Source: Dehalococcoidia bacterium (GTDB taxonomy: Bacteria; Chloroflexota; Dehalococcoidia; Lucifugimonadales; UBA3495). From it: a DNA stretch of 64,000 nt. Position 1 is the first letter of the stretch. Each line of letters starts with the position of its first letter. Below the pieces are notes generated by a model that had not been told where the DNA came from, searched no databases, and saw only the letters and a program-made list of their open reading frames with translations. The stretch lies in NCBI GenBank assembly GCA_965222595.1, contig CBDCUJ010000001.1, positions 235,522 to 299,521 of the forward strand. The letters are read 5' to 3'. Position numbers and translations under genes: made by a program. Positions 8,854-50,666 of the stretch are shown here, piece after piece.

Positions 8854-9348
8854 ATGAGACGCAGAACGAAGATGCCCGTCACCTTGGGCGCCGCGTTCCT
8901 CACGGCAATCCTCTTGCTCGCCGCGTGCCAGCAGGACCCGCCCGCGCCTGGGCAGGACCCGGCGCTGCTCCAAGGACAAAAAATCTTCGGGGCCAACTGC
9001 GCCGTCTGCCACGGGCAAGGCGGAGAGGGACAGCCCAACTGGCACGTCCGGAAATCCGACGGCACGTTGCCTCCTCCGCCTCTCAACGGGGACGGACATA
9101 CCTGGCACCATGGGGACGGGACCCTCTACACCTATGTGAGCGAGGGCGGGGCCGCCTACGAGTCCCCCAGCTATAAGAGCGGAATGCCCGCCTTCGGAGA
9201 CAACCTCTCCCACGAGCAGATAGTCGCCGTCATCAACTACCTGAAGAGCCTCTGGGGGGACAAGGTGGCGGAGGGCCTGGGGATAGTGAAGAGGGAATCG
9301 CAAGCCTCAGCCAGCGAGAACGACCCGTTCCCAACCTCCCCGCCGTAG
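8854..9348 (+). CDS. Lipoprotein-anchored c-type cytochrome
   Basis: MRRRTKMPVTLGAAFLTAILLLAAC lipobox and heme-binding CAVCHG. ATG 8854 is chosen because the upstream part of track ORF 8773 is translated repeat sequence. Confidence 0.75.
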   Translation: MRRRTKMPVTLGAAFLTAILLLAACQQDPPAPGQDPALLQGQKIFGANCAVCHGQGGEGQPNWHVRKSDGTLPPPPLNGDGHTWHHGDGTLYTYVSEGGAAYESPSYKSGMPAFGDNLSHEQIVAVINYLKSLWGDKVAEGLGIVKRESQASASENDPFPTSPP

Positions 9349-9635
9349 GGGAGAGAAACGGGCGCTGGGGTACCTCAGTTGTTCGTGTCAATTTGTACTG
9401 CGAATGCTTCGCTGGGAGGTTCTCATATAGCCTCGGTACGCCATTCCGTGATCGTGCATTCGAATATCACCGTGTCGGTTTCTCTGGGCGTAGGATTTAT
9501 CAGAGGCAGTCTTCCTCATCACTGCCTCGGACCTTCGTTTCCCTGGAGCATCTGCCGGAAAGAGACGGCAGGGGCTCAACGTGATCTGGAACAACGTCTC
9601 GACCCACTTGGGCCCGGCGATGCGGTCGTCCTTAG

Positions 9636-9765
9636 AGGGTGTGTGACAAGTCCCCTCTCCCTCTGGGAGAGGGTTAGGGTGAGGGCGTCCCGTAAGCTCT
9701 GCAGGAGCAACTAAGGCAAACTCACGCCAACTCATTGCACTCGAAAACGGTTTGTCACACACCCT
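9636..9765 (+). repeat. CTTAG-flanked stem-bounded repeat element (copy D) with hairpin+GGTTAGG core
   Basis: CTTAG (9631-9635), AGGGTGTGTGACAA, GTCCCCTCTCCCTCTGGGAGAGGGTTAGGGTGAGGGCG, ..., TTGTCACACACCCT, CTTAG (9766-9770). Confidence 0.65.
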
Positions 9766-10004
9766 CTTAGATATCCGGGCCTGACCCTGCGTCTGGTGAG
9801 CATGCCGCGAACAGCCCTGACTTCAACATCTATGAGGCTATCTGGAACTCGGTGTAGGAGGAAACGATAGGAAACAACGGCGCTGGTGCAGGATAGACGG
9901 AGCGCTTTTTTGCCAGCCTAGTCGACAGAAGAGAGGAGGTCAAACGGCGTTGCTGGACCGTCCTCCGATCTTGCATCGATTACGCACATCGTGCCGTTCA
10001 ATTT

Positions 10005-12076: not shown

Positions 12077-13429
12077 TTACAGGCCCAAACGCTGGCGGTA
12101 GTCGGGGTCCCAGGCGGCCAGTGTGCCTCGTTCCAATGCTTCGAGTTCCGGTGCCCGGGGGGACGCTTCTCCGGTCAGCGGCACGGTGGCCACGATGGCT
12201 TCTTGGACCAGTCGCTGGTAGTCTTCCTCGTCCATCCCTAGAAGCTCTTGCAAAATCGGGCCGTTGTGCTGCCCGAAGGTGGGGCTGGGACCGTGTATCC
12301 GCAGGTTGCTTTTGGAGAATTTGTAGGGCCGGCCGATGAAGGGCCGCGAGCCCATGCCCCGCTCCGTGGGATAGTCGACACGCTCCAGGAATCCCCGGTC
12401 CCGGTAGTGGGGGTCGAAGTGTACGTCTTTGCCGGTCAGTACGGGGCCCGAAGCGATTCCCACCCCTTGAAGGGCATGCATCAGGTCGTAGCGGTCCCGC
12501 TCCGCTGTCCATGCACTGATGATGTCGTCTAGCGCGTCGTGATTGCGCCGCCGCGACGGCAGGTCGAAGAAACGGGGGTCGGCCTTCAATTCAGGCTGGC
12601 CCATTAAATCGCACAACGCCAGCCATTCCGCATCGTCGGCCACCGACAACGCAATCCACTGGTCGTCGCCCAAAGCCGGATAGCACCCTTGCGGCGCCCG
12701 GTGGGGATGGCGGTTGCCGATGCGGGCCCCTTCCCTGCCGTTGGCCACGGCGTCCACGATGTATTCGGACAGGAACATCACGCCGGCCTGGTACATGCCG
12801 ATGTCGGCCCACTGTCCCAGCCCGGTCTTGTTGCGATAGCGAAGCGCGGAGCCGATGGCGAACAGGGCGGTCCAAGTCGACAGGAAGTCTACGAAGGACG
12901 CGCCAGCCTTGGCGGGACCTCCGTCGGGGTAACCTGTGACCCAGCAATGGCCGTGGGTCCCCTCCTGTGTCGTGGCTTGGGCCGGGTAGCCCGAGTACGG
13001 TCCGCCTCCGTGGCCGTAGCCGGTGTTGGACACCATGATGATGTCGGGGTTTATCTTTCGTAGGTTGGGATAGTCCAGCCCCCAGTTGCGCATGACCCTG
13101 GGCGTGAAGTTCTCCATGACCACGTCGCTGACGCTGACCAGTTGCCGGAACAGGTCCCGCCCCCGTTCGTCGGTGAGGTCCAGGGTGAGGGACTGCTTGC
13201 CGCGGTGGATGACATTGTAGGTGGACGGGCGGTTCCACCAGTCATCCCCGGAATCGTTCTCGGGGAAAGCGCCGGAATAGCCGCCGGTGCGCGTGATGTC
13301 GGGGCGGCCCGGCCCCTCGACCTTGATAACCTCCGCGCCCATGTCGGCCAGCAAGCCGCCGGCATAGGGCAGGGCGAACACGTAGGTGGAGTCGACCACC
13401 CGTATGCCTTCCAGCGGGAGCCCAGCCAT
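12077..13429 (-). CDS. Family III CoA-transferase (CaiB/BaiF)
   Basis: LEGIRVVDSTYVFALPYAGGLLADMGAEVIKVE N-terminal signature. 450 aa. Confidence 0.85.
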   Translation of the reverse strand: MAGLPLEGIRVVDSTYVFALPYAGGLLADMGAEVIKVEGPGRPDITRTGGYSGAFPENDSGDDWWNRPSTYNVIHRGKQSLTLDLTDERGRDLFRQLVSVSDVVMENFTPRVMRNWGLDYPNLRKINPDIIMVSNTGYGHGGGPYSGYPAQATTQEGTHGHCWVTGYPDGGPAKAGASFVDFLSTWTALFAIGSALRYRNKTGLGQWADIGMYQAGVMFLSEYIVDAVANGREGARIGNRHPHRAPQGCYPALGDDQWIALSVADDAEWLALCDLMGQPELKADPRFFDLPSRRRNHDALDDIISAWTAERDRYDLMHALQGVGIASGPVLTGKDVHFDPHYRDRGFLERVDYPTERGMGSRPFIGRPYKFSKSNLRIHGPSPTFGQHNGPILQELLGMDEEDYQRLVQEAIVATVPLTGEASPRAPELEALERGTLAAWDPDYRQRLGL

Positions 13430-13547
13430 TGCTATCTTAACGCCTCCATTCAGTCTGAATCAGGATTCCCCGAACTAGGGCATTAACAAAGTTCGCAGTT
13501 CCCAATCCTGGGAATCCCAAAATCTTGATAATTCTGATTCAAACAGT

Positions 13548-14828
13548 CTATATCGCGCCGGTCTGGCGGAGCCTCACCAACTCCTGCCGGGTATAGCCCA
13601 AGCCGTCCACGTAGATTTCGTGGTTGTGTTGCCCCAGGGTAGGGGCCGGAGCGATGTAACGGTAGGGGGTCAGGCTCAGGTTGAACAACACCGCCGGGAC
13701 CTTGATCTTGCCGATCACCGGGTGGTCGACTTCCCGGTAGAAGCCCCTGGACTCCAACTGGGGGCAGTCCGCCAACTCCGAGGGGGTCTGCACCAGGCCG
13801 AACAGCATCCTTGCTTGGGCCGCCTCGGTGAACAGGTCCCACTTGCCGCGGTCTTTGATGGAGTCCAGCACTATGCGGTCCAGCTCCTCGCCGTTCTGAT
13901 TGCGCTGACCCGTCTCCGCGAACCTGGGTTCGCGCAACTCCGGCGGGCCGAAGAAGTCGGCGATAGTCTCCCAAGTGGCGCCGCCGCCGGTTTGAACGAT
14001 TATCCAACCGTCTTCGCAGGGCATGGGATGGCCGAAATTACTGCCGGTGGGCCGGCGGCGCGGTTGGGTGCCGCCCATGAACGGGTACATGGTCTGGGTG
14101 GCCATCATGGTCGAAGCCACACACTCGGTTACCGAAACGTCGATATGCTGGCCTTCGCCCGTGTTGCCAGCCATGAACAGGGCCATCGCGGTGGCCGCCG
14201 CACCGTTCAAGCCGCCTTCGTACTGGGCCTGAAATCCGCCGTGCTTCAGGGGCTCCTTGTCTTGGGAGCCGCTGATGCTCATGATCATCCCCATGGCGTA
14301 GCTGACAATCTCTTCCCCCTTGTACCCGCTGTAGGGCCCGGTCTGCCCGAAGGGGGTAATGGACGTCATAATCAATGACGGGTTCAGCGTTTCGAGACTG
14401 TCATAACCCACCCCGAGTCCGTCCAGGTAGCCAGGCCGGAAGCTCTCGACGACCACATCGACGTGCGGGACCAGCTGCTTCAGGAGGTCGCGGCCCGCGG
14501 CGTTTTCAAGGTTCAGGTTGGCGCTCTTCTTGTTCAGGTTCAGCAACAAGAAGAACAGGCTTTTTTCGGGATGAGGGTCGTCACCGAAAAAGGGGGGCGC
14601 CCGGCGCAGGGCCGAGCCTCCCACCGGTTCCAGCTTCAACACATCGGCGCCGTAGTCCGCCAAGAGACGGGCGCAGAAGGACCCGGCGATGTCTTCGCTC
14701 AGGTCCAGTACCTTGACACCGTCCAAAGGGCCTAAGGCGAGCGAGGGCGGCAGGGTTGGGGAGTCGGCCAAGTCCGTATTTACTCCAATGCGGGAATATT
14801 CGTTAAGCCTAAATGGGCCCGGCGGCAA
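13548..14828 (-). CDS. Family III CoA-transferase (CaiB/BaiF)
   Basis: LDGVKVLDLSEDIAGSFCARLLADYGADVLKLEP signature. 426 aa. Exact start uncertain. Confidence 0.8.
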   Translation of the reverse strand: MPPGPFRLNEYSRIGVNTDLADSPTLPPSLALGPLDGVKVLDLSEDIAGSFCARLLADYGADVLKLEPVGGSALRRAPPFFGDDPHPEKSLFFLLLNLNKKSANLNLENAAGRDLLKQLVPHVDVVVESFRPGYLDGLGVGYDSLETLNPSLIMTSITPFGQTGPYSGYKGEEIVSYAMGMIMSISGSQDKEPLKHGGFQAQYEGGLNGAAATAMALFMAGNTGEGQHIDVSVTECVASTMMATQTMYPFMGGTQPRRRPTGSNFGHPMPCEDGWIIVQTGGGATWETIADFFGPPELREPRFAETGQRNQNGEELDRIVLDSIKDRGKWDLFTEAAQARMLFGLVQTPSELADCPQLESRGFYREVDHPVIGKIKVPAVLFNLSLTPYRYIAPAPTLGQHNHEIYVDGLGYTRQELVRLRQTGAI

Positions 14829-24336: not shown

Positions 24337-24879
24337 CTACCTGTCCAGCAAATGCCGCATCGCCTGCGGGGCGGCCGTGGCGGCCCGTTCCCGAAGCTCA
24401 GAAACGGTCAACGTGACAATCGGGTGGTCGATGATCGCCAAGCCGTAGTCCGCGTCCCCCCGCATCCGGGCCATGGCGCGGGCTTGACTCACGAAGGGCT
24501 TGGTGGTCAACACCGTGGAGGCCACCCCCAGCAGCTCCATCTCCATCGCGTCGTGCACACTGCACGAGGTGCAGGAGCCTCATTCCGCCGTGGCGTGAAT
24601 CATCACGTCGCAGCGTTGGGCCAAGTCTTCCAACGCGCTGCGGTCGGCAGGCCATTGGTGGCCGCCCTTGTTGTATTCCAGCACTTCCTTCAGCGAATAC
24701 CGCTCGCCAATGGTCTCGGCCATCATACGCAACAGGTCCTCGGAGTGGGGCTTGTTGTTGGACAACAGTCCCAGCACCCTGCCATTGAGGCTGGCCGGGC
24801 GGGCGGCCAGCACAGCCTGGGTTGGCTGGTCGCGGTCCCGGGGGTCAAGGGCGTAAATACCTCTTGGTGATTCCGGCAT
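24337..24879 (-). CDS. UGSC-motif (UxxCxxC) protein, predicted selenoprotein with in-frame UGA at 24580-24582
   Basis: Track ORFs 24580..24879 and 24337..24558 share one frame and are separated only by TGA. The joined reading is ...CDVMIHATAE-U-GSCTSCSVHDAMEMELLGVASTVL... A stem-loop CTGCAC/CTC/GTGCAG (24560-24574) starts 5 nt after the UGA. Confidence 0.7.
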
Positions 24880-26000: not shown

Positions 26001-26060
26001 GTATCCAGGAGGGCCCGGTGGTATCCAGGAGGGCCCGGTGGTATCCAGGAGGGCCCGGGT
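26001..26060. repeat. Three tandem copies of a 20-bp unit GTATCCAGGAGGGCCCGGTG
   Basis: Units at 26001-26020, 26021-26040 and 26041-26060 (the last ends GGT instead of GTG). Lies 72-131 nt upstream of the minus-strand start at 25929. Confidence 0.9.
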
Positions 26061-26313
26061 CGGAACAAGAGTCTGCCAAAAGATCCAGACCGGCCGTACC
26101 GCGGCGCCGCCCCCTACTCCCCCATGTATGCAGACGGACGGACCGGGCACGGCCGGCCTGGATCCCTGCCCTCCGGCCTCGAGGTGTTGGGGCCCCTTGA
26201 GCCGGAGGGCGGGGAGTGGAATCCCGGTGAACGGTCGCTACTTATCCGTCCTAGGCCGTTCCAAGATCAAAAGCGGAATGCAATATATCGCCTGGGCCAT
26301 CGTTGTCTGCCTC

Positions 26314-27236: not shown

Positions 27237-27444
27237 CGGACCCTCCATTGTCAACCCTCGCCCGGCATACAACAAAAAACCCGCGCCCCAGTTAGGGGCG
27301 CGGGTGTGATCGGGGACCGGCGCAGGTCAGGCCGGTTGGCTATGTGGCCGGTGCTAGACGGGGTACCGGTCTCCGTCGATTCCCCTTATTTGGCCGAACG
27401 CGCAGGCGGCCGTGTAGTCGGCGCTGTTCCGGTTTATCCAGGGA

Positions 27445-28272
27445 TCAGACCTCCAGTGGAGTATCATCGCGGTTGGCCCATTCACCCATGGAGGCGTCGT
27501 AGTTTTTCGTCTGGTTGTAACCGACCAGTTGGAGGACGAACACACCGTGCGCCGCACGGATTCCGCCCTGTCAATACGTGTAGACTTTCTTCTCGGGCGT
27601 GATGCCGGCCTCCGACAGGACTCGCTTGATTTCGTTGGCTGGCTTGAAACGGTGAGTGCCCCGGTCCATCACGTTGAACCATTCCAGGTGAATCGCCCCA
27701 GGAATGTGCCCAACACGCTGGTTGCCCCGGGAATCGCTGCCGTCCCATTCGGCGTCGCCCCGGACGTCCCAGATCACGGCGTCGGCCAGGCCGCAGGCCT
27801 CCTTCAGCTCATCGACCTTCACCAGCAACGACTCATCCCGCTGCGGTGTGAAAGTAGCGCCAGCGGCCCCGGAAGAGCGATCGACGCCGACACCGTTCCC
27901 GGCGGCTAGCCAACCCCTCCAGCCGCCGTCGAGCACTTTGACGTTGGCATGCCCATAGGTGTTGAGGGCCCACCAGAGCCGGGTAGCGTAGAGGCTCTGG
28001 GAGTTGTCGTAGGCGATTACCAGCGTGTCGTCGCCGACACCAAGCCCCTCGCACATGGCTTTGAATTGCTCAGAAGACATCAGGTGGACCCGGCCGGTGT
28101 CCGGGTCCTTTTCGAAGTTGTCGGGGACTATCACCGCGCCGGGAATATGCCCGCGGTTGTAAGCGGCGTCGACGTCGCAATCGACGACCACGACGTTCGA
28201 GTCGTCCTTGTGGGCGGTCACCCATGCGGCATCGACAAGATATTCGGGATGAGTGTAGTTCTCGGTCGCCAT
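27445..28272 (-). CDS. Two-domain rhodanese (thiosulfate sulfurtransferase-like) with TGA at the catalytic Cys position (predicted selenocysteine)
   Basis: Track ORF 27571..28272 ends ...KKVYTY at TGA 27571-27573. The same frame continues QGGIRAAHGVFVLQLVGYNQTKNYDASMGEWANRDDTPLEV to TGA 27445-27447, which matches the rhodanese active-site loop and C-terminus. A stem-loop CCGTGC/GGC/GCACGG (27545-27559) starts 11 nt after the UGA. Confidence 0.75.
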
Positions 28273-28545
28273 ATTCCCTCTTGCCAGTCGCCGCCGGACT
28301 CATCGCGGCGACATGCGACGTTATGACCGTCGTTTCGGGATTGTAGGCCACCGGCGCGAACACGGTCAACGCGGGCAGAGCGCTCCGGCGTCGGTTTACC
28401 TTGCCGTTCCCCAATCCTGAAAGCTAAAATGCGGGAAAGCCCGTCGGCCCGCCCCCGCCCAAAGACCGGGGCGGGCCGTCTTGTTGGAACGCCGCTTCCC
28501 TGATAGAGCCGGCTCCGAGATTGGGCCGAAGGCCAATGAGAGGTC

Positions 28546-29004
28546 GTGATGCGAAACGAGTTCACGGCGATATTCGAAATGGACGACGACCGCGTTGAGC
28601 CGCGCTATGTCGCGTACTGCGCGGAAATCCCCGGCGCCAACGCGGAAGGCAAAACGATGGATGAGGCGCGGACCAATTTGACCGAAGCGGTATCGCGGAC
28701 GCTGGAAGAGCGCCGCGCAAAAACCATGCGCGAAGTCCTGTACGATATCTCGCCCAACGCCACCCGCGAAACCGTGGTTGTACAGTCGTTGCGCAATGAG
28801 TTCACGGCAATAATCGAATGGGGAGAAGACTGGTACATCGCTTTTTGTCCGGAAATGCCCGCCGCCAGCGGTCAGGGCATAACCCGGGAGGAGGCACGGG
28901 ATAATTTGGCCGAAGCAATACTGCTGGTATTGGAAGATAGCCGCGATGACGGCTTGCGCGGCGTGCCTAACGAAGCCATCCGAGAAGTCATCGTAGTCCA
29001 GTGA
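28546..29004 (+). CDS. hicB: HicB-family antitoxin with a duplicated HicB/UPF0150 fold
   Basis: Two repeats: RNEFTAIFEMDDD..YVAYCAEIPGANAEGKTMDEARTNLTEAV and RNEFTAIIEWGEDWYIAFCPEMPAASGQGITREEARDNLAEAI. Overlaps the next gene by 4 nt. Confidence 0.7.
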   Translation: MMRNEFTAIFEMDDDRVEPRYVAYCAEIPGANAEGKTMDEARTNLTEAVSRTLEERRAKTMREVLYDISPNATRETVVVQSLRNEFTAIIEWGEDWYIAFCPEMPAASGQGITREEARDNLAEAILLVLEDSRDDGLRGVPNEAIREVIVVQ

Positions 29005-29195
29005 GACGCAATGCTCTGCTACATCATCTCCGTCGGCATCATTGCCGATTGAAGCGGGAAGGCCGGTCCCACTCAATCTGGCTCAACCCGGTCACCGGAG
29101 AGGTTCAATCCATACCTAGACACGCCGAGATTGATGACATCCTAGCCCGCAATATATGCCGCAAATTGTCAATCCCTATTATCGGCAGGGAGTAA
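29001..29195 (+). CDS. hicA: HicA-family toxin (mRNA interferase)
   Basis: 64 aa. LKREGRSHSIWLNPVTGEVQSIPRHAEIDDILARNICRKLSI fits the HicA pattern. Confidence 0.7.
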   Translation: MRRNALLHHLRRHHCRLKREGRSHSIWLNPVTGEVQSIPRHAEIDDILARNICRKLSIPIIGRE

Positions 29196-31396: not shown

Positions 31397-31837
31397 ATGA
31401 AGTATGCCTATCCCTGCATTCTGGAACCCGAGGAAGACGAGGCGTATCAGGGATGGTTTAACGTGTCCTTTCCCGACATACCCAGTGCATTGACTTGTGG
31501 ACGCGATTGGAAAACGGCTGTGGAAATGGCCGAAGACTGCCTGCTCGTGTCGCTGTGCGTTTGCGTGGAGCGCAACGAGGAACTTCCCACTCCCAGTCCC
31601 ACTGCACCGGGGCAGGAACTGGTTACAGTGCCGCCCCTAGCGGCGGCCAAGCTCGCGGTGTACTCGACGATGCGACGGAAGGAAATCAGCAACATGGAGC
31701 TGGCCGAACGCCTCGGCATCAACGAATCAGCAGTACGCAAGCTCCTGATTCCCGATCGCTACTCCCACATGAAGCAGGTGGCCAAAGCCCTGGACGCGGT
31801 CGGTTGCCACCTGGTGGTGGAGGACTTGGCGGCGTGA
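31397..31837 (+). CDS. hicB: HicB-family antitoxin with C-terminal HTH
   Basis: MKYAYPCILEPEEDEAYQGWFNVSFPDIPSALTCG (HicB fold) and ISNMELAERLGINESAVRKLL (HTH). Confidence 0.75.
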   Translation: MKYAYPCILEPEEDEAYQGWFNVSFPDIPSALTCGRDWKTAVEMAEDCLLVSLCVCVERNEELPTPSPTAPGQELVTVPPLAAAKLAVYSTMRRKEISNMELAERLGINESAVRKLLIPDRYSHMKQVAKALDAVGCHLVVEDLAA

Positions 31838-31880: not shown

Positions 31881-32540
31881 ATGCGTGAAATTATTGGACG
31901 ATACAAATTTAGCCCAGCGCAGTTGCGCTTGATGGCAAAATCTGATGTCACGCCCGTTGATACCCCCGTTGATACCATTGAGAAAGCCCACTCTCGCGAA
32001 TACATATTCACCGTCGACGAGTTCGTGCGAATGGCGGAAATAGGCATCCTAGATTCGGATGACCGGGTGGAGCTCATCGACGGGGTGATAGTGGAAATGG
32101 CGCCTATCGGCAGACCGCATGGAAATCGGGTAAGCGACGTTGCCAGAGCCTTTTGGGAGCACGTGCCAAAGAGTGTGCGAGTGTACATTGGTTCAACAAT
32201 TCGCCTTGACGACAGAACCGGGCCGCAGCCCGACATCGTGCTCCTTAATCCACAAGCGTCGGCGGACGAAGAAACCGTCCCCCGACCAGAAGACATATTA
32301 CTGATCGTTGAAGTATCGGCTTCGACCCTCCGAACCGACAGGGGCGCCAAGGCGAGGCGATACGCCCAGAACGGTATCCCCGAGTTGTGGATTTTCGTCT
32401 TGGAGACCGAGCAAATCGAGGTCTGCCGTCAGCCCACTCCGGAAGGCTACGCTGAAGTGCGGCGATTCAGCCGTGGCGACACGCTGACCATACAGGCTCT
32501 GCCCGGCATCCAGATTTCGATGGATGAGCTGCTGGCCTGA
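31881..32540 (+). CDS. Uma2 family (DUF820) PD-(D/E)xK endonuclease-like protein
   Basis: DDRVELIDGVIVEMAP...PDIVLL...ILLIVEVSASTLRTDRGAKARRYAQNGIPELWIF. Confidence 0.8.
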   Translation: MREIIGRYKFSPAQLRLMAKSDVTPVDTPVDTIEKAHSREYIFTVDEFVRMAEIGILDSDDRVELIDGVIVEMAPIGRPHGNRVSDVARAFWEHVPKSVRVYIGSTIRLDDRTGPQPDIVLLNPQASADEETVPRPEDILLIVEVSASTLRTDRGAKARRYAQNGIPELWIFVLETEQIEVCRQPTPEGYAEVRRFSRGDTLTIQALPGIQISMDELLA

Positions 32541-40297: not shown

Positions 40298-40749
40298 GCG
40301 GATCGCGCTCCCAAAGGGAAAATCAAGCTGGGCAAGCCGCTCCCAATGCGGCCGAAAGACGCCGGGATTGTACCATGGCGTCCGCTGGGAAGCGGATGGC
40401 CGTCAGCCTGTTTCGTGGGCTGTCCCCTGGGCTGCGTCCGTGTCGCAGAACCGGCCGCTGTCTTGCAACTCGGGGTCGATCTCCGCCCGTGTCCGTTCCG
40501 GTAGCGGCTCGAACGGGCCGTATGCGGCGAGGTAACGGCGGGCCAGTCCCGAAACAACCCTCAGGCCGCCACCTCTTGGACGATTCCTCGATGCCTCAGC
40601 CGGACCAGTCGAGGCGGTAGAACTGCGGCGGCGGCTCCAACTTGACAACACCGGCGGCTGAGCACATCATTAGGCAAAGCTTTTCGGACAAGACTACGCT
40701 AGGCGCGTTGTCACACTTTTACAATAGAATATCCCGCACAACAAGATCC

Positions 40750-40958
40750 AACGATGGAAGTGCCCTTCCCAGGGCTTGAACGGGGAAGCTGGTCAAAGTC
40801 CAGCACTGTCCCGCAACGGTAGGTCCCGATTTATCGGGGCGAGTCCGGTCCACGGCTTCCATCGATGTTCTTACCTTCGAGGAAAGGTACTGGCATAACC
40901 CGTTAGCCGCAAGAAGCCCTGTTCCTTCCCGGAGTAAGCGTTGGAACAGGGTTTTTTA
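40750..40958 (+). promoter_or_regulatory. Cobalamin (B12) riboswitch with an intrinsic terminator expression platform
   Basis: P1 GATGGAAG (40752-40759) pairs with CTTCCATC (40856-40863). Core AACGGGGAAGCTGGTCAAAGTCCAGCACTGTCCCGCAACGGTA (B12 box) and GAGTCCGG. Followed by a terminator hairpin. Sits upstream of BtuF-like ABC importer genes. Confidence 0.75.
40917..40957 (+). terminator. Rho-independent terminator (riboswitch expression platform)
   Basis: CCCTGTTCC (40917-40925), 17-nt loop, GGAACAGGG (40943-40951), then TTTTTT. Confidence 0.7.
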
Positions 40959-40997: not shown

Positions 40998-42095
40998 GTG
41001 ATCAGGATTCGACTTATCCTCTGTGCAATGGCGTTGCTGGCCGTATCGGTGCTGGTTGCGGCGTGCTCGAACGCTGCCCCCACGGCGCCGCCAACCCCGA
41101 CGGTTGTTCCGACCGTATCGCCGACTTCAGCTCCGGCCTCGCCGACTATCGTCCCTACCGGCGGGCCTCCGGCCGAAGCAACCGCCGCCCCGACCGCCGA
41201 GCCTACTGCGCCGCCGCCGGCGTCCACCCGGCCCGCGTCCCAACCCACGGCGGTCCCGACGCGGACGCCCTCGCCTACCAACACTCCCAAGCCGACCGCC
41301 ACGCCAGCCCCGGTGGTTGTCGCGGATACCAACGGCAACCCGGTCCAATTCGACACCCCGCCGGAGCGCATGGTGGTCTACGACGGGGCGGCTGTTGAGA
41401 TGCTGTTCGCCATCGGCCAAGGGCATCGCGTCATTGGAACCCACATTTTCGTTACGTACCCGCCGGAGACAGCAGGCATCCCCAAGATTGGCGACGCTTT
41501 CAACATGGACATCGAAGCCATCGTCGCCTTGGAGCCGGACTTGGTGTACGTGTTCTACGACCGTTTCAACGAGGACCTGGAGCGGGCCGGGTTGAAAGTG
41601 CTCTACATCAAGAGTCTGTCCGATGGCTTCACCGAGGTAGCCAACCAGATACGGATGTGGGGCCTCATCACCGGCGGGACCGAGGAGGCCGGGAAGCTGG
41701 CCGGCGAGTTCGACGCGCGAGTGGCCGCCATCGAAGACAGGCTGGACGACATTGAATCAATCAAGACCGTCTACTCCCATGACCTTGAATGGTGGACGCC
41801 GGGACGCAAAACCCTGGTCAACGACGTGTTCGAGCTGCTGAAACTTCAGAACATCGCCGACTTCGAAGGCTATCAGCAAATCAGCCCCGAGGTGGTGGTG
41901 GCCGCCAACCCCGACATCATCATGGGGTCGATAGAAGACGTGACCGGGGAGCCGGCGCTGTCCGGCCTGTCCTCAGCCGCGCCTGACCGCATCTTCACGC
42001 TCAGCGTGGCCAACTCCTTCAGCGTGGCCGGGCCGCGGTTTATAGACGCCGTGGAAGAAATGGCCGCCTGGGTCTATCCCGACCGCTTCGAGTAA
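40998..42095 (+). CDS. ABC transporter periplasmic-binding lipoprotein (cobalamin/siderophore, BtuF-like)
   Basis: Lipobox LVAAC, a Pro/Thr/Ala-rich linker, then a class 8 binding-protein core (ERMVVYDGAAVEMLFAIG...PDLVYVF). Controlled by the B12 riboswitch. Confidence 0.8.
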   Translation: MIRIRLILCAMALLAVSVLVAACSNAAPTAPPTPTVVPTVSPTSAPASPTIVPTGGPPAEATAAPTAEPTAPPPASTRPASQPTAVPTRTPSPTNTPKPTATPAPVVVADTNGNPVQFDTPPERMVVYDGAAVEMLFAIGQGHRVIGTHIFVTYPPETAGIPKIGDAFNMDIEAIVALEPDLVYVFYDRFNEDLERAGLKVLYIKSLSDGFTEVANQIRMWGLITGGTEEAGKLAGEFDARVAAIEDRLDDIESIKTVYSHDLEWWTPGRKTLVNDVFELLKLQNIADFEGYQQISPEVVVAANPDIIMGSIEDVTGEPALSGLSSAAPDRIFTLSVANSFSVAGPRFIDAVEEMAAWVYPDRFE

Positions 42096-42118: not shown

Positions 42119-43255
42119 GTGGCCGAAAGGAGCAGCAAGCCCCCCCTTCACCCCCCCAGTGGGGGGGTTGTAAGGGGGGAGGGACCGGCGGCCTTGGATC
42201 TCGGCAGAATCGCCGGGGGGTTGGTCGGCCTTCGCTACCCGTGGTGGCGGCTGGCCTTCGGCGGGGCCGCTTTCTTAGTAGCGGCGGTATTCGCGGCCAG
42301 CCTTGGCTCCGTCGACATTCCCTTCCTCGCGACGGCCCAGATCGTGCTCTCCCGGCTGCCCGGCATTGACTCCCCGGCGAATACTCCGGCGGCGTGGGAC
42401 ACTATTGTGTGGCAACTCCGGCTGCCCCGGGTAGCCTTGGCCGGGATCGTGGGAGGCGGCCTGGCGATGGCCGGCGCCGCCTACCAGGGGCTCTTCAAGA
42501 ACCCGCTGGCCGATCCCTACCTGGTGGGGGTCGCGTCGGGGGCGGGGCTGGCGGCAGTTATCGTTCTGCTGACCGGAGTGCCTTTATTCATCGGCGGGTT
42601 CAGCTTCCTCCCCGCCGCGGCATTCGTTGGCGGCGTCTCAGCGGTGGCGGTGGCCTATTCCGTCGCCCGTAGCTCCCGGGGAACGCCCCTGACCACCCTG
42701 ATCCTGGCGGGCGTGGCCATTGCCTCACTGGCCGGAGCGGTAACCAGCCTGCTGATGATCCGCAGCGACCCAGAGCTCCGTCCGGTCATTAGCTGGCTCT
42801 TGGGCAGCTTCATCTCGTCAGAGTGGAGCGAGTGCGCCATCGTTCTGGCCTACCTGGCCCCCAGCATGGTCGTGCTCTTGGGGTTCGGCCGGGTATTGAA
42901 CGTGCTGCAGTTGCGGGAGGAACACGCCTCGATGCTCGGCGTCGAAGTCGAAAAGGTGAAGTTGCTCCTCATCGTGGCGGCCACCATGACCACAGCCGCC
43001 GCCGTATCCTTCACCGGGCTCATCGGCTTCGTCGGGCTGATCGCCCCCCACGTCGTGAGGCTGATCTGGGGGACCGACTACCGGTTCATCCTGCCCATGT
43101 CGGCCATTCTCGGGGCCACGTTCCTGGTGCTGGCCGACCTGGCGGCCCGCACTGTGGCGAGCCCCGGCGAACTGCCCGTTGGTATCGTCACCGCATTCTG
43201 CGGCGCGCCATTCTTCCTGTACCTGCTCCGGCGCCGCGGCGCCGGTATGGTCTAG
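42119..43255 (+). CDS. FecCD/BtuC-family ABC permease
   Basis: Multi-TM protein with LAGVAIASLAGAVTSLLM and GLIGFVGLIAPHVVRL patterns. Start uncertain because the N-terminus contains a translated repeat hairpin. Confidence 0.8.
   Translation: MAERSSKPPLHPPSGGVVRGEGPAALDLGRIAGGLVGLRYPWWRLAFGGAAFLVAAVFAASLGSVDIPFLATAQIVLSRLPGIDSPANTPAAWDTIVWQLRLPRVALAGIVGGGLAMAGAAYQGLFKNPLADPYLVGVASGAGLAAVIVLLTGVPLFIGGFSFLPAAAFVGGVSAVAVAYSVARSSRGTPLTTLILAGVAIASLAGAVTSLLMIRSDPELRPVISWLLGSFISSEWSECAIVLAYLAPSMVVLLGFGRVLNVLQLREEHASMLGVEVEKVKLLLIVAATMTTAAAVSFTGLIGFVGLIAPHVVRLIWGTDYRFILPMSAILGATFLVLADLAARTVASPGELPVGIVTAFCGAPFFLYLLRRRGAGMV
42140..42179. repeat. C-rich/G-rich hairpin repeat within the permease N-terminal coding region
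   Basis: CCCCCCCTTCACCCCCCC AGT GGGGGGGTTGTAAGGGGGG. Inner 7-bp stem (42151-42157 / 42161-42167). Encodes PPLHPPSGGVVRGE. Confidence 0.7.
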
Positions 43256-45355: not shown

Positions 45356-46369
45356 GTGGCGGTAGCAGGCGCGGGCCGGGCGGCGCCGGGGAGCCGCCGG
45401 ACCGGCTCGTGGTTCCGCAGTCTCACCCTCGTTACTTTCGTCTCGGTTTTTGCATTGGTTGTGCTGGGAGGCGTGGTCCGGGTAACCGGGTCCGGGCTGG
45501 GCTGTCCCGATTGGCCCCTCTGCCACGGCGGCTTGCTGCCGCCCCTCGAGACCAAGGCCATAATCGAGTTCGCCCACCGTTTTGTGGCCTCGATTCTGGT
45601 GGGGCCGCTGATCATCGTCACCTGCGTTTCGGCCTGGGTGTTCCAACGGAACGAAAGGTGGCTGATTGTGCCGGCAACCGCCGCCTTGGTATTACTGGTG
45701 CTGCAAGCGTTGCTCGGCGGTTATACGGTGCTGAACGAGTTGCCGGGTATCATCGTTTTGGTCCATCTGGCCGTGGGACAAGGGCTGCTGGGTTGTCTAA
45801 CCCTGATGACGGTGGTAGCCTACCGGGGGCCTTTACGGGGCGGGCCGCAACCGTGGGCCGAGGGGAAACTCCGCAGGTTTCCCTCGCTGTCCATCGTCGC
45901 GGCGGCGGTGGTGTTCGGCCTGATGCTGTCGGGTTCGTGGGTGACTATTTCCGGGTCCACCGGCGCCTGTTTGGACTGGCCCCTGTGTAACGGCGACGCC
46001 TTCCCCTCACAACGGCTCCAGATGATTCACATGGTCCACCGGTACGTGGCGCTGGTAATAGGTCTGTTGGTCTTGTACACGTTGCACCTGGGGTTCAGGG
46101 GGCACACCCAACCCACACCCGTCAGGATGCTGTCGCTTGCCGGGGCCGCATTGTTTGTCGGCCAGGTGCTGGTGGGAGCCGGCGCGGTGTGGACCGACTT
46201 TTCCCAAGAATTCCGCGCCCTTCACCTGGCGTTGGCCACCGGTGTCTGGGCCGCAGTAGCCGCGCTGGCCTTCGTGGTCTACACTGGAAAGGCTGAAACC
46301 GGAAGCGCCGAAACTGGAAGGAGCCCCGGACGCGGGCACACCTCATCCACCAGGACCGCTAATGGCTGA
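45356..46369 (+). CDS. ctaA: Heme A synthase (COX15/CtaA)
   Basis: VRVTGSGLGCPDWPLCHG and a second Cys pair GACLDWPLCNG. Multi-TM. Confidence 0.85.
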   Translation: MAVAGAGRAAPGSRRTGSWFRSLTLVTFVSVFALVVLGGVVRVTGSGLGCPDWPLCHGGLLPPLETKAIIEFAHRFVASILVGPLIIVTCVSAWVFQRNERWLIVPATAALVLLVLQALLGGYTVLNELPGIIVLVHLAVGQGLLGCLTLMTVVAYRGPLRGGPQPWAEGKLRRFPSLSIVAAAVVFGLMLSGSWVTISGSTGACLDWPLCNGDAFPSQRLQMIHMVHRYVALVIGLLVLYTLHLGFRGHTQPTPVRMLSLAGAALFVGQVLVGAGAVWTDFSQEFRALHLALATGVWAAVAALAFVVYTGKAETGSAETGRSPGRGHTSSTRTANG

Positions 46370-47294
46370 TCAAATCGGGGCCGATCGAATAGACCTGAGC
46401 AAACCCGCCGCCGGCCGCGCCGCGGCAATGGGCCGGATGGCGGCCGATTACCTCACTCTCACCAAACCGCCCATCATCTCCCTGCTCTTGGTAACAGCCG
46501 TCGGCGGGATGTTTCTGGCCGCCCAAGGAGTTCCCCCCATTATCACCCTGCTGCTGGTCTGTGCCGGAGGGGCTCTGGGGGCCGGCGGGGCCAACGCCAT
46601 CAACCATTACCTGGACCAAGACATCGACGCCCTGATGAGCCGCACCTGGCAGCGGCCGGTTGCCAGCCACCGGATACCGCCGGCACGGGCGCTGGCCTTT
46701 GGCATCGGGCTGAATGTGGCGTCTTTCTTAGTGTTGGCCGGCGGGGTCAACATGCTGGCGGCGGTCCTCACCCTGGGGGCCACCCTGTTCTACGTGCTGG
46801 TTTATACCGTGTGGCTGAAGCGCACCACCCCGCAGAACATCGTCATCGGGGGCGCCGCCGGCTCAATACCTCCAGTGGTCGGCTGGGTGGCAATCACGGG
46901 GTCCTTCGATCTGTCGGCGCTTTACCTGTTCACCATCATTTTCTTCTGGACCCCGCCCCACTTCTGGGCCCTGTCTCTGCTGATACAAAAGGACTACGAG
47001 CGGGCCGGCGTGCCCATGCTCCCAGTGGTGGCGGGCAAGGAACGCACGGTACAGAGCATTTTCGGCTACACCCTCGTGCTGGTGGCGCTGACTCTGGTGT
47101 TCACGGCGTCCTCCACTCTGGGGCCGGTCTACCTCGGAATGGCAGCGGTACTGGGGGCCGTTTTAGTGGGGATGGCCTGGCAGTTACGGCGGGAGCAGAC
47201 AGCCCGGCGGGCGCGTCACCTGTACCTGTATTCGCTGCTCTACCTCGCGGTGCTGTTCGTAGCGATAATGGTCGACAGCGTACTCGTATTTTGA
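46362..47294 (+). CDS. ctaB: Protoheme IX farnesyltransferase (heme O synthase)
   Basis: UbiA-family pattern NHYLDQDIDALMSRT and YTVWLKRTTPQNIVIGG. Overlaps the ctaA stop. Confidence 0.85.
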   Translation: MADQIGADRIDLSKPAAGRAAAMGRMAADYLTLTKPPIISLLLVTAVGGMFLAAQGVPPIITLLLVCAGGALGAGGANAINHYLDQDIDALMSRTWQRPVASHRIPPARALAFGIGLNVASFLVLAGGVNMLAAVLTLGATLFYVLVYTVWLKRTTPQNIVIGGAAGSIPPVVGWVAITGSFDLSALYLFTIIFFWTPPHFWALSLLIQKDYERAGVPMLPVVAGKERTVQSIFGYTLVLVALTLVFTASSTLGPVYLGMAAVLGAVLVGMAWQLRREQTARRARHLYLYSLLYLAVLFVAIMVDSVLVF

Positions 47295-47336
47295 GCTGCC
47301 AAATCGCCGGGACTATTGCCCGCCCGCCCCCCCTTC

Positions 47337-47460
47337 GTAACTGTTCAGACTTCGGGGGATCTGCTTGACCAGCGGCACCGCCGACAGGGCAATTTAGCTT
47401 TGAGCAAGGCTGGATCCCCGTCCTCTGCGGGCATTCGTCCCCTCAACTCTGAACAGTTAC
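47337..47460. mobile_element. MITE-like element (copy B) with GTAACTGTTCAGA termini
   Basis: Same 13-bp termini as copy A (47337-47349 / 47448-47460). 9-bp direct repeat CCCCCCTTC at 47328-47336 and 47461-47469. Lies between ctaB and coxB. Confidence 0.75.
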
Positions 47461-47562
47461 CCCCCCTTCAAATACGTTGACAGTGCCGACGGTGCTGTGA
47501 TAACGTCCCCACCGCAAACAAGCACACCGCGCAAGCGGCTGTCGCTTTAGGGGAGTCCGAAT

Positions 47563-48753
47563 ATGGGGTTGATGCCCTCGCGACGGGCAGGTCCCCCTCA
47601 CCACAAAACAGGTAACCCTGAACGGTCCGTCCAGCGCCGAAACTGGTCACGAACAGTGGTTTTTTTCGGTACCTTGGCGGCCCTTTTCTTGCTTGCCGTG
47701 GCCTGCAGCCAAGGAAAGCAGTCCACTTGGGAGGCCGTGGGGCCGGTCGCCGAAAAACAGCTCCTGCTGTTTAAGGTGCTGCTCTGGACCATGGTCGCGG
47801 TCTTCGTGCTGGTGGAGGGAGCCCTCCTTTACACTCTGATACGCTACCGGCGCCGTCCCGGGCAGGAACGACCGCCCCAGATCCACGGTCACACCGCGCT
47901 GGAAGTCATTTGGACCATCATCCCTACGATAGTGGTTCTGGGGTTGGGAATCTGGTCGGTGTTCACCCTCTTCGAGTTGGACGAACCCCCAAGGGACGGC
48001 CCCGAGGTGCTCGACGTCGTCGTCACGGGCCACCAGTGGTATTTCGAGTTCGAATATCCGGACGCCGGCGGCGGAAAGAGGATAACCACCGCTAACGAGC
48101 TCCGCATTCCGGTTGACCGGCCCGTCCGCTTGGACCTCGAGAGCGACGACGTGCTCCACAGCTTCTGGGTGCCCAAGCTGGCCGGCAAAGTGGACGTGGT
48201 GCCCACCCGGACCAATCACCTGTGGTTCCAAGCCGATAGGGACAAGATTGACGAGGCACTGCCAGCCACCTTCTACGGCCAATGCGCCGAGCTATGCGGC
48301 ATCTCCCACGCCCTGATGCGGTTTCGGGTGATAGTCATGGACCAAGACGATTTCGACTCCTGGGTGGCCGACTACGGGCCCCCGGCGGCCGTCACCCCAC
48401 GGGCCCAGCAGGGGCAGCAGGTCTTCAACATCAACTGCGCCCTTTGCCATACCGTCAATGGCGCGGAAAACGAGGCGGTAGCCGCAACCAGGCTTACGCA
48501 GTTCCTGAGCGGAGGGGATGTCGTCGCGGTGCCCGGTCCGAACCTGACCGACCTCCGGCACCGGATGACCCTGGGCGCCGGAATAACGGACCTTTCGGTG
48601 GAGAACCTCCGGGCCTGGATCAAGAACCCCGAGAGGTTGAAGCCCGGCAACTGGATGTACGACAAGGCGATCATGTACCAGGACGGCGGCGATGCCAATC
48701 TCAGCGATGATGACATCGATGCTGTGATTGAGTATCTGATGAACCTGCGCTAG
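47563..48753 (+). CDS. coxB: Cytochrome c oxidase subunit II with a fused C-terminal cytochrome c domain (caa3 type)
   Basis: CuA site CAELCGISHALM. Heme c site CALCHTV. Lipobox-like LLAVAC. Exact start uncertain. Confidence 0.85.
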   Translation: MGLMPSRRAGPPHHKTGNPERSVQRRNWSRTVVFFGTLAALFLLAVACSQGKQSTWEAVGPVAEKQLLLFKVLLWTMVAVFVLVEGALLYTLIRYRRRPGQERPPQIHGHTALEVIWTIIPTIVVLGLGIWSVFTLFELDEPPRDGPEVLDVVVTGHQWYFEFEYPDAGGGKRITTANELRIPVDRPVRLDLESDDVLHSFWVPKLAGKVDVVPTRTNHLWFQADRDKIDEALPATFYGQCAELCGISHALMRFRVIVMDQDDFDSWVADYGPPAAVTPRAQQGQQVFNINCALCHTVNGAENEAVAATRLTQFLSGGDVVAVPGPNLTDLRHRMTLGAGITDLSVENLRAWIKNPERLKPGNWMYDKAIMYQDGGDANLSDDDIDAVIEYLMNLR

Positions 48754-48812
48754 ACTATTCTCGGAAGGAAAGCTCCCCTTGCGGAAGGGGGACGGACCGG
48801 CTTAGAAGAGCG

Positions 48813-50666
48813 ATGGCCACACTAACTGACGTAATTGCCCGGCCTACCGGTTACTCCGGCATCTGGAGCTGGATAACGACCGTCGACCACAAGCGCATCG
48901 GCGTCTTGTACGGTACAACGGCGTTCATCTTCATGCTGTTCGCCGGAATAGAGGCGGGCGTCATCCGGGTACAACTGTCCCAGCCCGAGCTGGGCATCGT
49001 CAGTCCCGGCCGCTATAACGAAATGTTCACCATGCATGCCACCGTGATGATTTTCATGGTGGTCATGCCCTTGTCGGCCAGCTTCTTCAACTTTGTCGTG
49101 CCCCTGGCAATCGGGGCCAGGGACGTCGCATTCCCCAGGCTGAACGCCCTGAGCTACTGGATTTTCCTGTTCGGCGGCATCCTGATGCACGTCAGCTTCG
49201 CCGTGGGCGAGGTGCCCGACGCCGGCTGGTTCTCCTACGCCAACCTGACGGAAAAGCCTTTCAGCCCCGATCGAGGCCTGGACTTCTGGTCCCTGAGCCT
49301 CCTGGTGCTGGGGGCCTCCTCAGTGGCTGCCGCCCTCAACTTCGTCGTCACCATCGTCAACCTCCGTGCGCCGGGCATGACGCTCATGCGTATGCCGGTG
49401 TTCGTCTGGATGACTCTTATTACTTCCATCCTGCTGGTCTTGGCCTTCCCGGTAATTACCGTGGGCCTTATCGAACTCACGATGGACCGCAACTTCGGCA
49501 CCCATTTCTTCGTCCCCTCGGAGGGCGGCGACCCCATATTGTGGCAACATCTTTTCTGGGTGTTCGGGCACCCTGAAGTCTACATTCTGATCTTGCCGCC
49601 CATGGGTATCGTCTCGGAAATACTGCCGACCTTCTCGAAGAAGCCCTTGTTCGGGTACCCCTTCATCGTGTTCTCCGGCATCGTTATCGGCATGATGGGC
49701 TGGGCGGTGTGGAGTCACCACATGTTCACCGTGGGCCTCGGACCCGTGGCGAACTCGGTTTTCACCATCACGACCATGCTCATCGCGGTGCCCACCGGCG
49801 TCAAGATATTCAACTGGATGGGCACACTGTGGAAGGGGTCTATCGAATTCAGCACGGCCATGCTGTTTGCTCTGGGGTTCATCACCCTGTTCATTATCGG
49901 GGGGCTCAGCGGGGTCTCCCACGCCGTTTCGCCGTCGGACTTCCAGCAACAGGACACCTACTACGTCGTGGCCCACCTCCACTACGTGCTGTTTGGCGGT
50001 TCGGTCTTCGGAATCTTCGCGGGAATCTACTACTGGTACCCCAAGATAACCGGGAAGATGCTGAGCGAATTCTGGGGTAAGATCACCTTCGCCCTGATGT
50101 TCATTGGCATGAACGTGACCTTCTTCCCCATGCACTACGCCGGCATGAACGGAATGCCGCGGCGGATCTTCACCTACGCCGAGGAATTTGGCTGGGGCAA
50201 CCTGAACCTGTTGTCCACCTTCGGCTACTTCGTCCTTTTCATCAGCATCCTCACGTTCATGTACAGCCTCTGGCAAAGCCGGCGCTCTCGGCCGGTGAGC
50301 CACGACCCGTGGGACGCCCCGGGGCTGGAATGGAGCATCGCCTCCCCGCCCCCGCCTTATAACTTCGCGGAGATCCCGAGGGTCGAGGGACGGGACCATT
50401 ACTGGATCTTGAAAGACCGAGCCCGTGAGGAAGGCAACCCCATCACCGGCCCGGAAGCTCCCGTCGATCCGGCTTCAATCCACATGCCCAGTCCGTCGTA
50501 CTGGCCGATCATCACAGCCGCGGGAGTAGCCCTCATCGGCGGCGGGATAGTATCCCACTACGGAATCAGTTTCCTCGGCGGTGTCATAGCGTTCCTCGGC
50601 GTCATCGGGTGGGCCAATGAGCCTGCGGCCGCGCCCGAGGAAGGTCGCGCCGGGGCACACCACTAG
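48813..50666 (+). CDS. ctaD: Cytochrome c oxidase subunit I
   Basis: LFWVFGHPEVYILILP and HHMFTVG motifs. 617 aa. Confidence 0.95.
   Translation: MATLTDVIARPTGYSGIWSWITTVDHKRIGVLYGTTAFIFMLFAGIEAGVIRVQLSQPELGIVSPGRYNEMFTMHATVMIFMVVMPLSASFFNFVVPLAIGARDVAFPRLNALSYWIFLFGGILMHVSFAVGEVPDAGWFSYANLTEKPFSPDRGLDFWSLSLLVLGASSVAAALNFVVTIVNLRAPGMTLMRMPVFVWMTLITSILLVLAFPVITVGLIELTMDRNFGTHFFVPSEGGDPILWQHLFWVFGHPEVYILILPPMGIVSEILPTFSKKPLFGYPFIVFSGIVIGMMGWAVWSHHMFTVGLGPVANSVFTITTMLIAVPTGVKIFNWMGTLWKGSIEFSTAMLFALGFITLFIIGGLSGVSHAVSPSDFQQQDTYYVVAHLHYVLFGGSVFGIFAGIYYWYPKITGKMLSEFWGKITFALMFIGMNVTFFPMHYAGMNGMPRRIFTYAEEFGWGNLNLLSTFGYFVLFISILTFMYSLWQSRRSRPVSHDPWDAPGLEWSIASPPPPYNFAEIPRVEGRDHYWILKDRAREEGNPITGPEAPVDPASIHMPSPSYWPIITAAGVALIGGGIVSHYGISFLGGVIAFLGVIGWANEPAAAPEEGRAGAHH

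Follow-up and report, generated by a model that had tools for sequence, protein, structure and literature searches.

The subject of this analysis is a rhodanese gene on the minus strand of a 64,000-nucleotide stretch of DNA (hereafter the window, in whose coordinates positions are given) from a marine Chloroflexi bacterium of the SAR202 lineage (Dehalococcoidia). The gene is interrupted by an in-frame TGA at the codon of its catalytic cysteine, and very probably this codon is decoded as selenocysteine (Sec) through the elongation factor SelB and a selenocysteine insertion sequence (SECIS) in the messenger RNA, giving a 275-residue Sec-rhodanese. This reading is based on protein alignment, on the conservation of the codon and of the frame behind it, on the freezing of a hairpin downstream of the UGA, and on a second predicted selenoprotein gene nearby.

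As the earlier note on this DNA described, the open reading frame (ORF) from 28272 to 27574 (233 residues, ending in KKVYTY) stops at the TGA at 27573-27571, after which the frame continues through 41 further codons, QGGIRAAHGVFVLQLVGYNQTKNYDASMGEWANRDDTPLEV, before a second TGA is reached at 27447-27445; both observations were confirmed in the sequence, and the joined product has 275 residues. The first coding part (27574..28272, minus strand, residues 1-233) comprises an inactive N-terminal rhodanese domain and most of the catalytic C-terminal domain, as delimited by Pfam PF00581 and structure alignments, with the N-terminal domain at approximately residues 15-123 (27904..28230, minus strand; best Pfam stretch 15-123, with alignment to 1UAR and 1E0C). 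The in-frame TGA (27571..27573, minus strand), predicted to specify U234, lies at the catalytic-cysteine column, with TAT as its 5' codon and C as the next nucleotide. The second coding part (27448..27570, minus strand, residues 235-275) supplies QGGIRA, the remainder of the loop, together with the helix and strand that end the catalytic domain; it is conserved in 80 loci, with a ratio of nonsynonymous to synonymous substitution rates (dN/dS) of 0.085-0.12. The 275-residue frame ends at the true terminator, which is TGA in this genome (27445..27447, minus strand). An exact-protein look-up found no identical protein on record.

Protein comparisons, made with cysteine placed at the TGA position, identify the product as a two-domain rhodanese. 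Pfam PF00581 matched in two stretches (E = 3.3e-36), indicating two tandem rhodanese-homology domains, and full-length alignments were obtained with three solved Cys rhodaneses, namely 1UAR of Thermus thermophilus (E = 2e-40), 3HZU (SseA of Mycobacterium tuberculosis) and 1E0C (RhdA of Azotobacter vinelandii), over an E range of 2e-40 to 3e-34. The TGA aligned on the catalytic cysteine of all three enzymes and the tail on their C-terminal helix, strand and GY..NYDGSW.EW.N motif, which bears out the claims that the TGA sits exactly where the cysteine belongs and that the downstream residues fit the family C-terminus. These enzymes have the same two-repeat layout as the window protein, with an inactive N-terminal repeat, and share with it both the six-residue loop led by the nucleophile and the GY..V.NYDGSW.EW.N tail. 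They differ from it in the nucleophile codon, which is UGA in the window gene and UGC or UGU in the solved enzymes, and in the loop itself, which reads QGGIR(A) in the window protein, as opposed to RIAER(S), RIGER(S) and QTHHR(S) among the solved ones. The nucleophile position opens the active-site loop of the C-terminal domain, U-QGGIR-A. In the N-terminal repeat, the query segment AYDNSQS aligned with LYGDKNN of 1UAR and VYDDEGG of 1E0C, and because aspartate (AYDNS) replaces the catalytic cysteine, this is the usual non-catalytic repeat.

Two narrower family assignments were rejected. The SseA equivalog model for 3-mercaptopyruvate sulfurtransferase (NF008557) scored 125.5 bits against a cut-off of 250, over positions 4-278 of its 281, and the loop reads UQGGIRA, not CG[ST]GVTA; the window protein is a related non-member. 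The model for rhodanese form 3, a single-domain CxU protein (NF041203), gave 30.6 bits against a cut-off of 115 and matched residues 144-185 only, away from U.

The internal TGA is a conserved feature and, as its recurrence across genomes indicates, no lesion. The best 120 matches among 5.8 billion proteins (68-97% identity, 85% query coverage) are all 232-237 residues long, and every one of them was stopped by gene callers at the same column. A scan of GTDB species genomes provided 80 orthologous loci from 80 Dehalococcoidia/SAR202/Chloroflexota species genomes (metagenome-assembled genomes, MAGs, many of them closed chromosomes). At the DNA level, TGA occupies this codon in 80/80 orthologues and is followed in frame by the conserved tail GY..NYD.SMGEWAN..DTPLEV. 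The terminator codon varies across orthologues (TAG 47, TAA 21, TGA 13); the internal codon is TGA in 81/81.

Homologues with cysteine at this column complete the picture. Five full-length proteins (P0132, P0137, P0140, P0146 and P0147) have Cys at the UGA column and keep the same loop and tail; P0147, for instance, reads ...IVTY-C-QGGVRAA...NYDGSMGEWANRTNTPLVK, a tail piece also given as MGEWANRTNTPLVK. By these alignments, the two sets are a Cys/Sec homologue pair of the classic type. The earlier note had proposed to look for Cys or TGA at this column, and had named, besides a genome free of Sec-decoding machinery, two outcomes that would count against its reading: homologues that genuinely end at this position, and Cys homologues in which the downstream frame is not conserved. 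Neither was encountered: all 80 orthologues continue with the conserved tail (dN/dS 0.085), and the five Cys homologues retain it.

The recoded codon extends beyond the orthologue set. In 6 SAR202 genomes a tandem Sec-rhodanese paralogue (50-55% identity) lies directly upstream of the orthologue, with TGA in 6/6 in the context Y-TGA-QAGLRAAHG and with the same invariant hairpin core described below (L057 ~9110-9928; L060 ~9021-9875; L062 ~9035-9865; L069 ~9110-9928; L076 ~9085-9927; L079 ~9076-9885). In an exhaustive search of cluster representatives, truncated clusters reached down to about 30-49% identity, interleaved with forms of 270-290 residues, and two distant clusters inspected at the DNA level (43-45% identity, on contigs of 40-44% GC) have TAT-TGA-CAR and an intact tail. 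Public records do not reflect this recoding: the GenBank and IMG entries of orthologues are 'sulfurtransferase' proteins of 232-234 residues with no selenocysteine flag (MCH8989051.1, HIN06229.1; in IMG, 'thiosulfate/3-mercaptopyruvate sulfurtransferase'), and this mis-annotation is systematic across hundreds of clusters.

Downstream of the UGA, the coding sequence contains a SECIS-like hairpin, CCGUGC-GGC-GCACGG (27545..27559, minus strand; 6 bp, loop GGC), which lies at 27559-27545 as the earlier note had it and begins 11 nt after the UGA, with its loop at 17 nt. RNAfold places this core atop an 8-bp lower stem, AGGGCGGA / UCGUCCUC, in an extended stem-loop that is drawn tentatively from the minimum-free-energy fold (27569-27533, minus strand; -26.7 kcal/mol). 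The sequence is under constraint at the RNA level here. Normalised synonymous codon entropy over codons 233-246 is 0.33, compared with 0.66 elsewhere, the lowest of 168 contiguous windows of codons (column-permutation p < 1e-5). The frozen Ala-Ala pair is GCG-GCG in 80-81/81 copies, against a GCC share of 67% among Ala codons elsewhere, and the frozen Arg codon is mostly CGT, which accounts for 7% elsewhere. The Tyr codon immediately 5' of the UGA (27574-27576) is TAT in 81/81 copies, while other Tyr columns are mostly TAC (62-88%).

Two hairpin architectures occur within this one orthologous gene. In class A (proteins with RAAHG, paralogues included), the 16 nt UCCGUGC-GGC-GCACGG at columns 17-32 are 100% identical in 65/65 copies, and a 13-nt core is retained also in the homologues from 40-44% GC contigs, against the codon bias expected there, so that the core spans genomes of 40-61% GC. 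Class B is a pelagic subclade of 22 genomes (proteins with RAANS; ALOHA, Io17, UBA and NORP MAGs) which lacks the CCGUGC/GCACGG hairpin, as established by comparing the 54 nt after each TGA (L010, L015, L018, L020, L025, L026, L035, L037, L042, L043, L045, L051-L053, L058, L061, L063, L065, L066 and L070-L072). Its hairpin, GGCGAACA-GUN-UGUUCGUC, has a stem starting 17 nt after the UGA (6 nt further 3') and a loop at 25 nt (8 nt further), and includes a frozen rare AGT Ser codon. Judging from this comparison, the recoding signal seems to have been exchanged wholesale while the gene around it stayed orthologous.

The placement of these hairpins agrees with what is said of bacterial SECIS elements. 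In the minimal SECIS of E. coli fdhF, the upper stem-loop is reported to start 11 nt after the UGA (Liu et al. 1998), and the bSECISearch criteria (Zhang & Gladyshev 2005) reportedly put the apical loop 16-37 nt after it. The G-first triloops of both classes fall within that range (class A at 17 nt, class B at 25 nt), and the proposal that the window hairpin is compatible in position with a bacterial SECIS holds, with its start at 11 nt and its GGC loop at 17 nt. Like the fdhF element, it is a stem-loop inside the coding sequence with an upper hairpin from 11 nt after the UGA and a G-first apical loop. Unlike fdhF, it has a 3-nt loop, GGC, no obvious bulged U and no sequence similarity to the E. 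coli element, and its binding by SelB is a prediction. By eye, on the unfolded sequence, no SECIS-like hairpin was evident 3' of the true terminator TGA.

Evidence that the host decodes Sec comes from a second gene, 3 kb from the rhodanese on the same strand (24337..24878, minus strand). It belongs by similarity to the UGSC family and has an in-frame TGA (24582-24580) at the U of the UGSC motif, in the context HATAE-U-GSC; an ORF called on the plus strand, 24352-24870, merely shadows it in antisense. Against NF041046, 'UGSC family (seleno)protein', the joined product aligned with positions 2-146 of the 147-position model (E = 1.8e-32), at 112 bits, slightly below the equivalog cut-off of 125. 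From 12 nt after the TGA the gene has a hairpin, UCGUGCA-GUG-UGCACGA, which upon folding has the same shape as the rhodanese hairpin and a similar sequence. The TGA is kept in four syntenic loci (L001, L002, L004 and L022), and on a 97%-identical public contig (L081) gene callers split the gene into two PF24696 fragments. The UGSC family (NF041046 / PF24696) thus shares with the rhodanese an in-frame TGA and a G-first triloop hairpin of the CGUGC.../...GCACG type, while being unrelated to it in fold and function. A scan of the window and 1.6 Mb of loci detected recurrent in-frame TGAs in these two families only. As a predicted selenoprotein gene, the UGSC gene supports independently the presence of a Sec-decoding trait in this genome.

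In both genes, the codon 5' of the presumed Sec-UGA is an unpreferred, A/U-ending one: TAT in 81/81 rhodanese copies and GAA (24583-24585) in 5/5 UGSC copies. An A/U-ending codon in this position may reflect a context effect on the balance between termination and Sec insertion.

Published surveys place related organisms among Sec users. BSepDB, which restricted its scan to genomes having two or more of SelA, SelB and SelD, lists in its top-10 table Dehalococcoidia bacterium UBA1141 with 49 selenoprotein genes and the isolate 10f4566d-ab44-... with 46 (PMC13326102). Loci L015 and L026 come from these two genomes, each of which has the TGA rhodanese. Chloroflexi were already listed as Sec users in 2006, and SelA and SelB co-occur in most bins of a sponge-symbiont study that included SAR202.

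Several results weigh against Sec insertion. ARAGORN searches of the window and loci L001-L060 detected no tRNA-Sec, and tblastn with E. coli SelA, SelB and SelD gave no match in the window and 80 loci (1.6 Mb). Pfam assigned ORFs of a size expected for SelA, SelB or SelD to CoA-transferases, COX1, an ABC transporter, GGT and similar proteins. At the RNA level, the folding energy is unexceptional (z = -1.58; 13/200 shuffles fold equally well), and no Rfam SECIS family matched at the gathering or a permissive threshold. Covariation was not found in the hairpin: the upper stem never varies, and its 6 bp are all that RNAalifold retains, while pairing in the lower stem reaches 87.6% of cells across copies, the same as in shuffled controls. 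Because of this lack of covariation, the RNA case rests on position, shape and synonymous freezing. Finally, we know of no experimental evidence of selenium incorporation in any member of the family.

The alternative that survives best accepts recoding and replaces the residue: the UGA would be read as Cys by way of a SelB-like factor and a Cys-charged, tRNA-Sec-like tRNA, or it would be read through by near-cognate tRNA-Cys or tRNA-Trp with stimulation from the hairpin. The inserted residue is indistinguishable from sequence, all of the recoding evidence is equally compatible with this account, and the Sec machinery was not found in the window and flanking loci. Even so, we regard it as improbable. 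A recognised selenoprotein family, UGSC, is encoded in the same window, the orthologue-carrying genomes include published Sec users with 46-49 selenoproteins, and an enzyme with Trp in place of its nucleophile would be inactive. Moreover, Cys is directly encodable by UGC or UGU, as in the Cys homologues; a costly UGA and hairpin kept in more than 80 species therefore favour a residue that cannot be encoded otherwise.

Whether the frame beyond the UGA is used at all was addressed through substitution patterns, with Nei-Gojobori estimates over 600 ortholog pairs. The gene body (codons 1-232) has a dN/dS of 0.165 at a synonymous rate (dS) of 1.14, and the tail past the hairpin (codons 247-275) a dN/dS of 0.085 at a dS of about 1.5; purifying selection is stronger on the tail than on the gene body, and synonymous change in the tail is saturated. 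Judged by this low dN/dS at saturated synonymous change, the 41-codon tail is translated. The hairpin codons (235-246) combine a dN/dS of 0.206 with a dS of 0.43, a lower synonymous rate that indicates an additional constraint at the nucleotide level. Peptides from the tail, such as NYDASMGEWANR, can come from read-through alone.

These data bear directly on the view that the UGA is a true stop, ending either a functional 233-residue product without the catalytic loop or a pseudogene or sequencing error, the downstream frame being coincidental. Public records of 232-234-residue 'sulfurtransferase' proteins and gene callers that end at the TGA speak for it. Against it stand the 41 downstream codons, which 80/80 genomes conserve in frame at a dN/dS of 0.085 and saturated synonymous change, and the recurrence of precisely TGA in over 87 independent copies that differ in assembly and technology; the shortened product would also be left with no nucleophile and an incomplete fold. 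The sequence comparisons thereby effectively refute this view, and we accord it only a very slight chance of being correct. A genome-wide reassignment that makes UGA a sense codon, of the kind seen in codes 4 and 25, and needs no dedicated signal would account for an in-frame TGA alone and deserves next to no credence, since UGA is a normal stop elsewhere: TGA closes about 18/61 of the crude gene calls made in the window, GcvT, CtaA and CtaB end at TGA with their Pfam domains complete there, the rhodanese terminator itself is TGA here and in 13/81 copies, and recurrent in-frame TGAs are confined to two families in 1.6 Mb.

Under Sec insertion, the following mechanism may be proposed. The UGA at 27573-27571 would be read by Sec-tRNA(Sec) brought by SelB, which would itself be recruited by the stem-loop inside the coding sequence, CCGUGC-GGC-GCACGG, placed 11 nt after the UGA with its G-first apical loop at 17 nt. 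The ribosome would then go on for 41 codons, completing the loop U-QGGIR-A and adding the final helix and strand to the catalytic domain. In the mature enzyme, the selenolate would take a sulfane sulfur, for example from thiosulfate, and pass it via a Se-S intermediate to an acceptor. A role for SelB and tRNA-Sec in this genome and the incorporation of selenium are probable extensions of the sequence evidence. The substrate, the proposed selenenyl or perselenide (Se-S or Se-Se) chemistry and the physiological role of the enzyme are inferred. To our knowledge, no Sec-rhodanese has been studied biochemically so far, and a Se-S (or Se-Se) transfer intermediate, if true, would represent new enzymology.

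A further idea, speculative and rather unlikely, is that the Sec-rhodanese, instead of being mainly a thiosulfate sulfurtransferase, acts as a selenium relay, in which a Se-Se perselenide or mixed Se-S species on the selenolate feeds selenophosphate synthetase, the tandem paralogues serve as successive carriers, and the frozen 13-nt core, retained from 40% to 61% GC, marks a module of gene plus signal that passes as one between lineages. Such a relay, if true, would serve SAR202 cells that sustain selenoproteomes of unusual size (46-49 genes) in an oxic setting.

Sec-containing rhodaneses have been predicted before. A Sec 'rhodanese-related sulfurtransferase' (COG2897) was proposed in 2005 from 3 Sargasso Sea sequences, with a SECIS drawn (Zhang, Fomenko & Gladyshev, PMC1088965), and the same family was found again in the Global Ocean Sampling (GOS) data as cd01449/COG2897 (PMC2398784), so the statement that such proteins had been predicted from marine metagenomes was correct. 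A 2026 review catalogues the Sec rhodanese as 'rhodanese form 4, UxxG' (PMC13188914). The published COG2897 Sec rhodanese shares with the window protein the PF00581 fold, the two-domain SseA-like architecture, Sec at the catalytic-Cys position of the C-terminal repeat, the U-x-x-G motif (here U-Q-G-G), a marine microbial origin and a SECIS-like hairpin right after the UGA. By sequence features (U-Q-G-G, PF00581, two domains), the window gene fits the form 4 UxxG definition, for which AACY01016424 and MCY3690685.1 are the published representatives; a cluster-membership link to the review representative MCY3690685.1 was not found, the NCBI cluster members being MCH8989051.1 and HIN06229.1.

The earlier reports had as their basis 3-9 reads from metagenomes or a single representative accession, without taxonomic assignment, and no mention of SAR202 or Chloroflexi in connection with the Sec-rhodanese family was found in the literature. 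Compared with published form 4, the family is here placed in Dehalococcoidia/SAR202 and documented from 80 species genomes, and it includes tandem Sec paralogues as well as two hairpin architectures. Its SAR202-wide conservation, the tandem paralogues, the two alternative hairpins and the 13-nt core kept across 40-61% GC genomes go beyond the literature found. The replacement of catalytic Cys by Sec in a rhodanese is thereby upheld as real and strongly conserved, on far more data than the original 3-9 reads.

These results matter for the host lineage and for gene prediction alike. SAR202 is abundant, dark-ocean and sponge-associated, and implicated in sulfur and recalcitrant-carbon cycling, and because the rhodanese is cut at the TGA and UGSC is split in public records, inventories of its selenoproteome and sulfur metabolism are under-called. 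The two alternative hairpins and the GC-independent 13-nt core also provide training cases for bacterial SECIS models, which according to BSepDB miss about 13% of known genes (PMC13326102).

Regulatory features around the gene were read from its flanks, all on the minus strand. A promoter-like TTGACC-18-TACAAT (28340..28369), a pattern match with 10/12 consensus positions in a scan, precedes the start codon by about 68 nt, and a Shine-Dalgarno-like AGAGGG (28276..28281), read from the sequence, lies ahead of the ATG at 28272. In 59/59 loci whose alignment starts from residue 1, a motif of this kind falls within the 20 nt before the aligned ATG. Approximately 140 nt past the stop lies an intrinsic-terminator-like hairpin (27279..27305) with an 11-bp GC-rich stem followed by a T-run. 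Because of the promoter-like site, the AGAGGG and the strong terminator-like hairpin at 27305-27279, the arrangement suggests a monocistronic unit.

The neighbourhood in this genome comprises an ArsR-family regulator, an AHSA1/SRPBCC protein, HicAB pairs and an acetyl-CoA-synthetase-like gene. The last of these, oriented divergently, recurs at 53/80 loci and is the sole widely recurring neighbour; the ArsR and AHSA1 genes are limited to the closest relatives, and no conserved operon partner or link to selenium genes emerged across the 80 loci. HicB-like/HicA toxin-antitoxin genes stand beside the rhodanese, followed by a second HicB-like gene and a Uma2-family endonuclease (28546-29195, 31397-31837 and 31881-32540). 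A small upstream ORF ends at a TGA at about 31391 with the HicB start next in frame, an arrangement that recurs in 17 loci and imitates an in-frame TGA. This 17-locus cluster was rejected as a recoding candidate, since a HicA stop is simply followed by an in-frame HicB start.

Other features of the window are mentioned for completeness. A near-perfect intergenic palindrome at 26060-26185 (stem of about 35 bp, -75.7 kcal/mol, z = -4.7), between a gene for a 338-residue hypothetical protein and the AHSA1 gene, drew weak, spurious miRNA-like Rfam matches and could be an element of the repetitive extragenic palindromic (REP) or miniature inverted-repeat transposable element (MITE) kind, or a bidirectional terminator. 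A cobalamin riboswitch (RF00174, 55 bits) lies on the plus strand at 40741-40874, upstream of genes at 40998-42095 and 42119-43255. The window also includes, across 45356-50666, 55475-56581 and 12077-14828, an aerobic respiration cluster (CtaA, CtaB and COX1), the glycine-cleavage protein GcvT and two adjacent family-III CoA-transferases. Because COX1, haem-A synthesis and GcvT are encoded in the window, the gene content fits an aerobic host.

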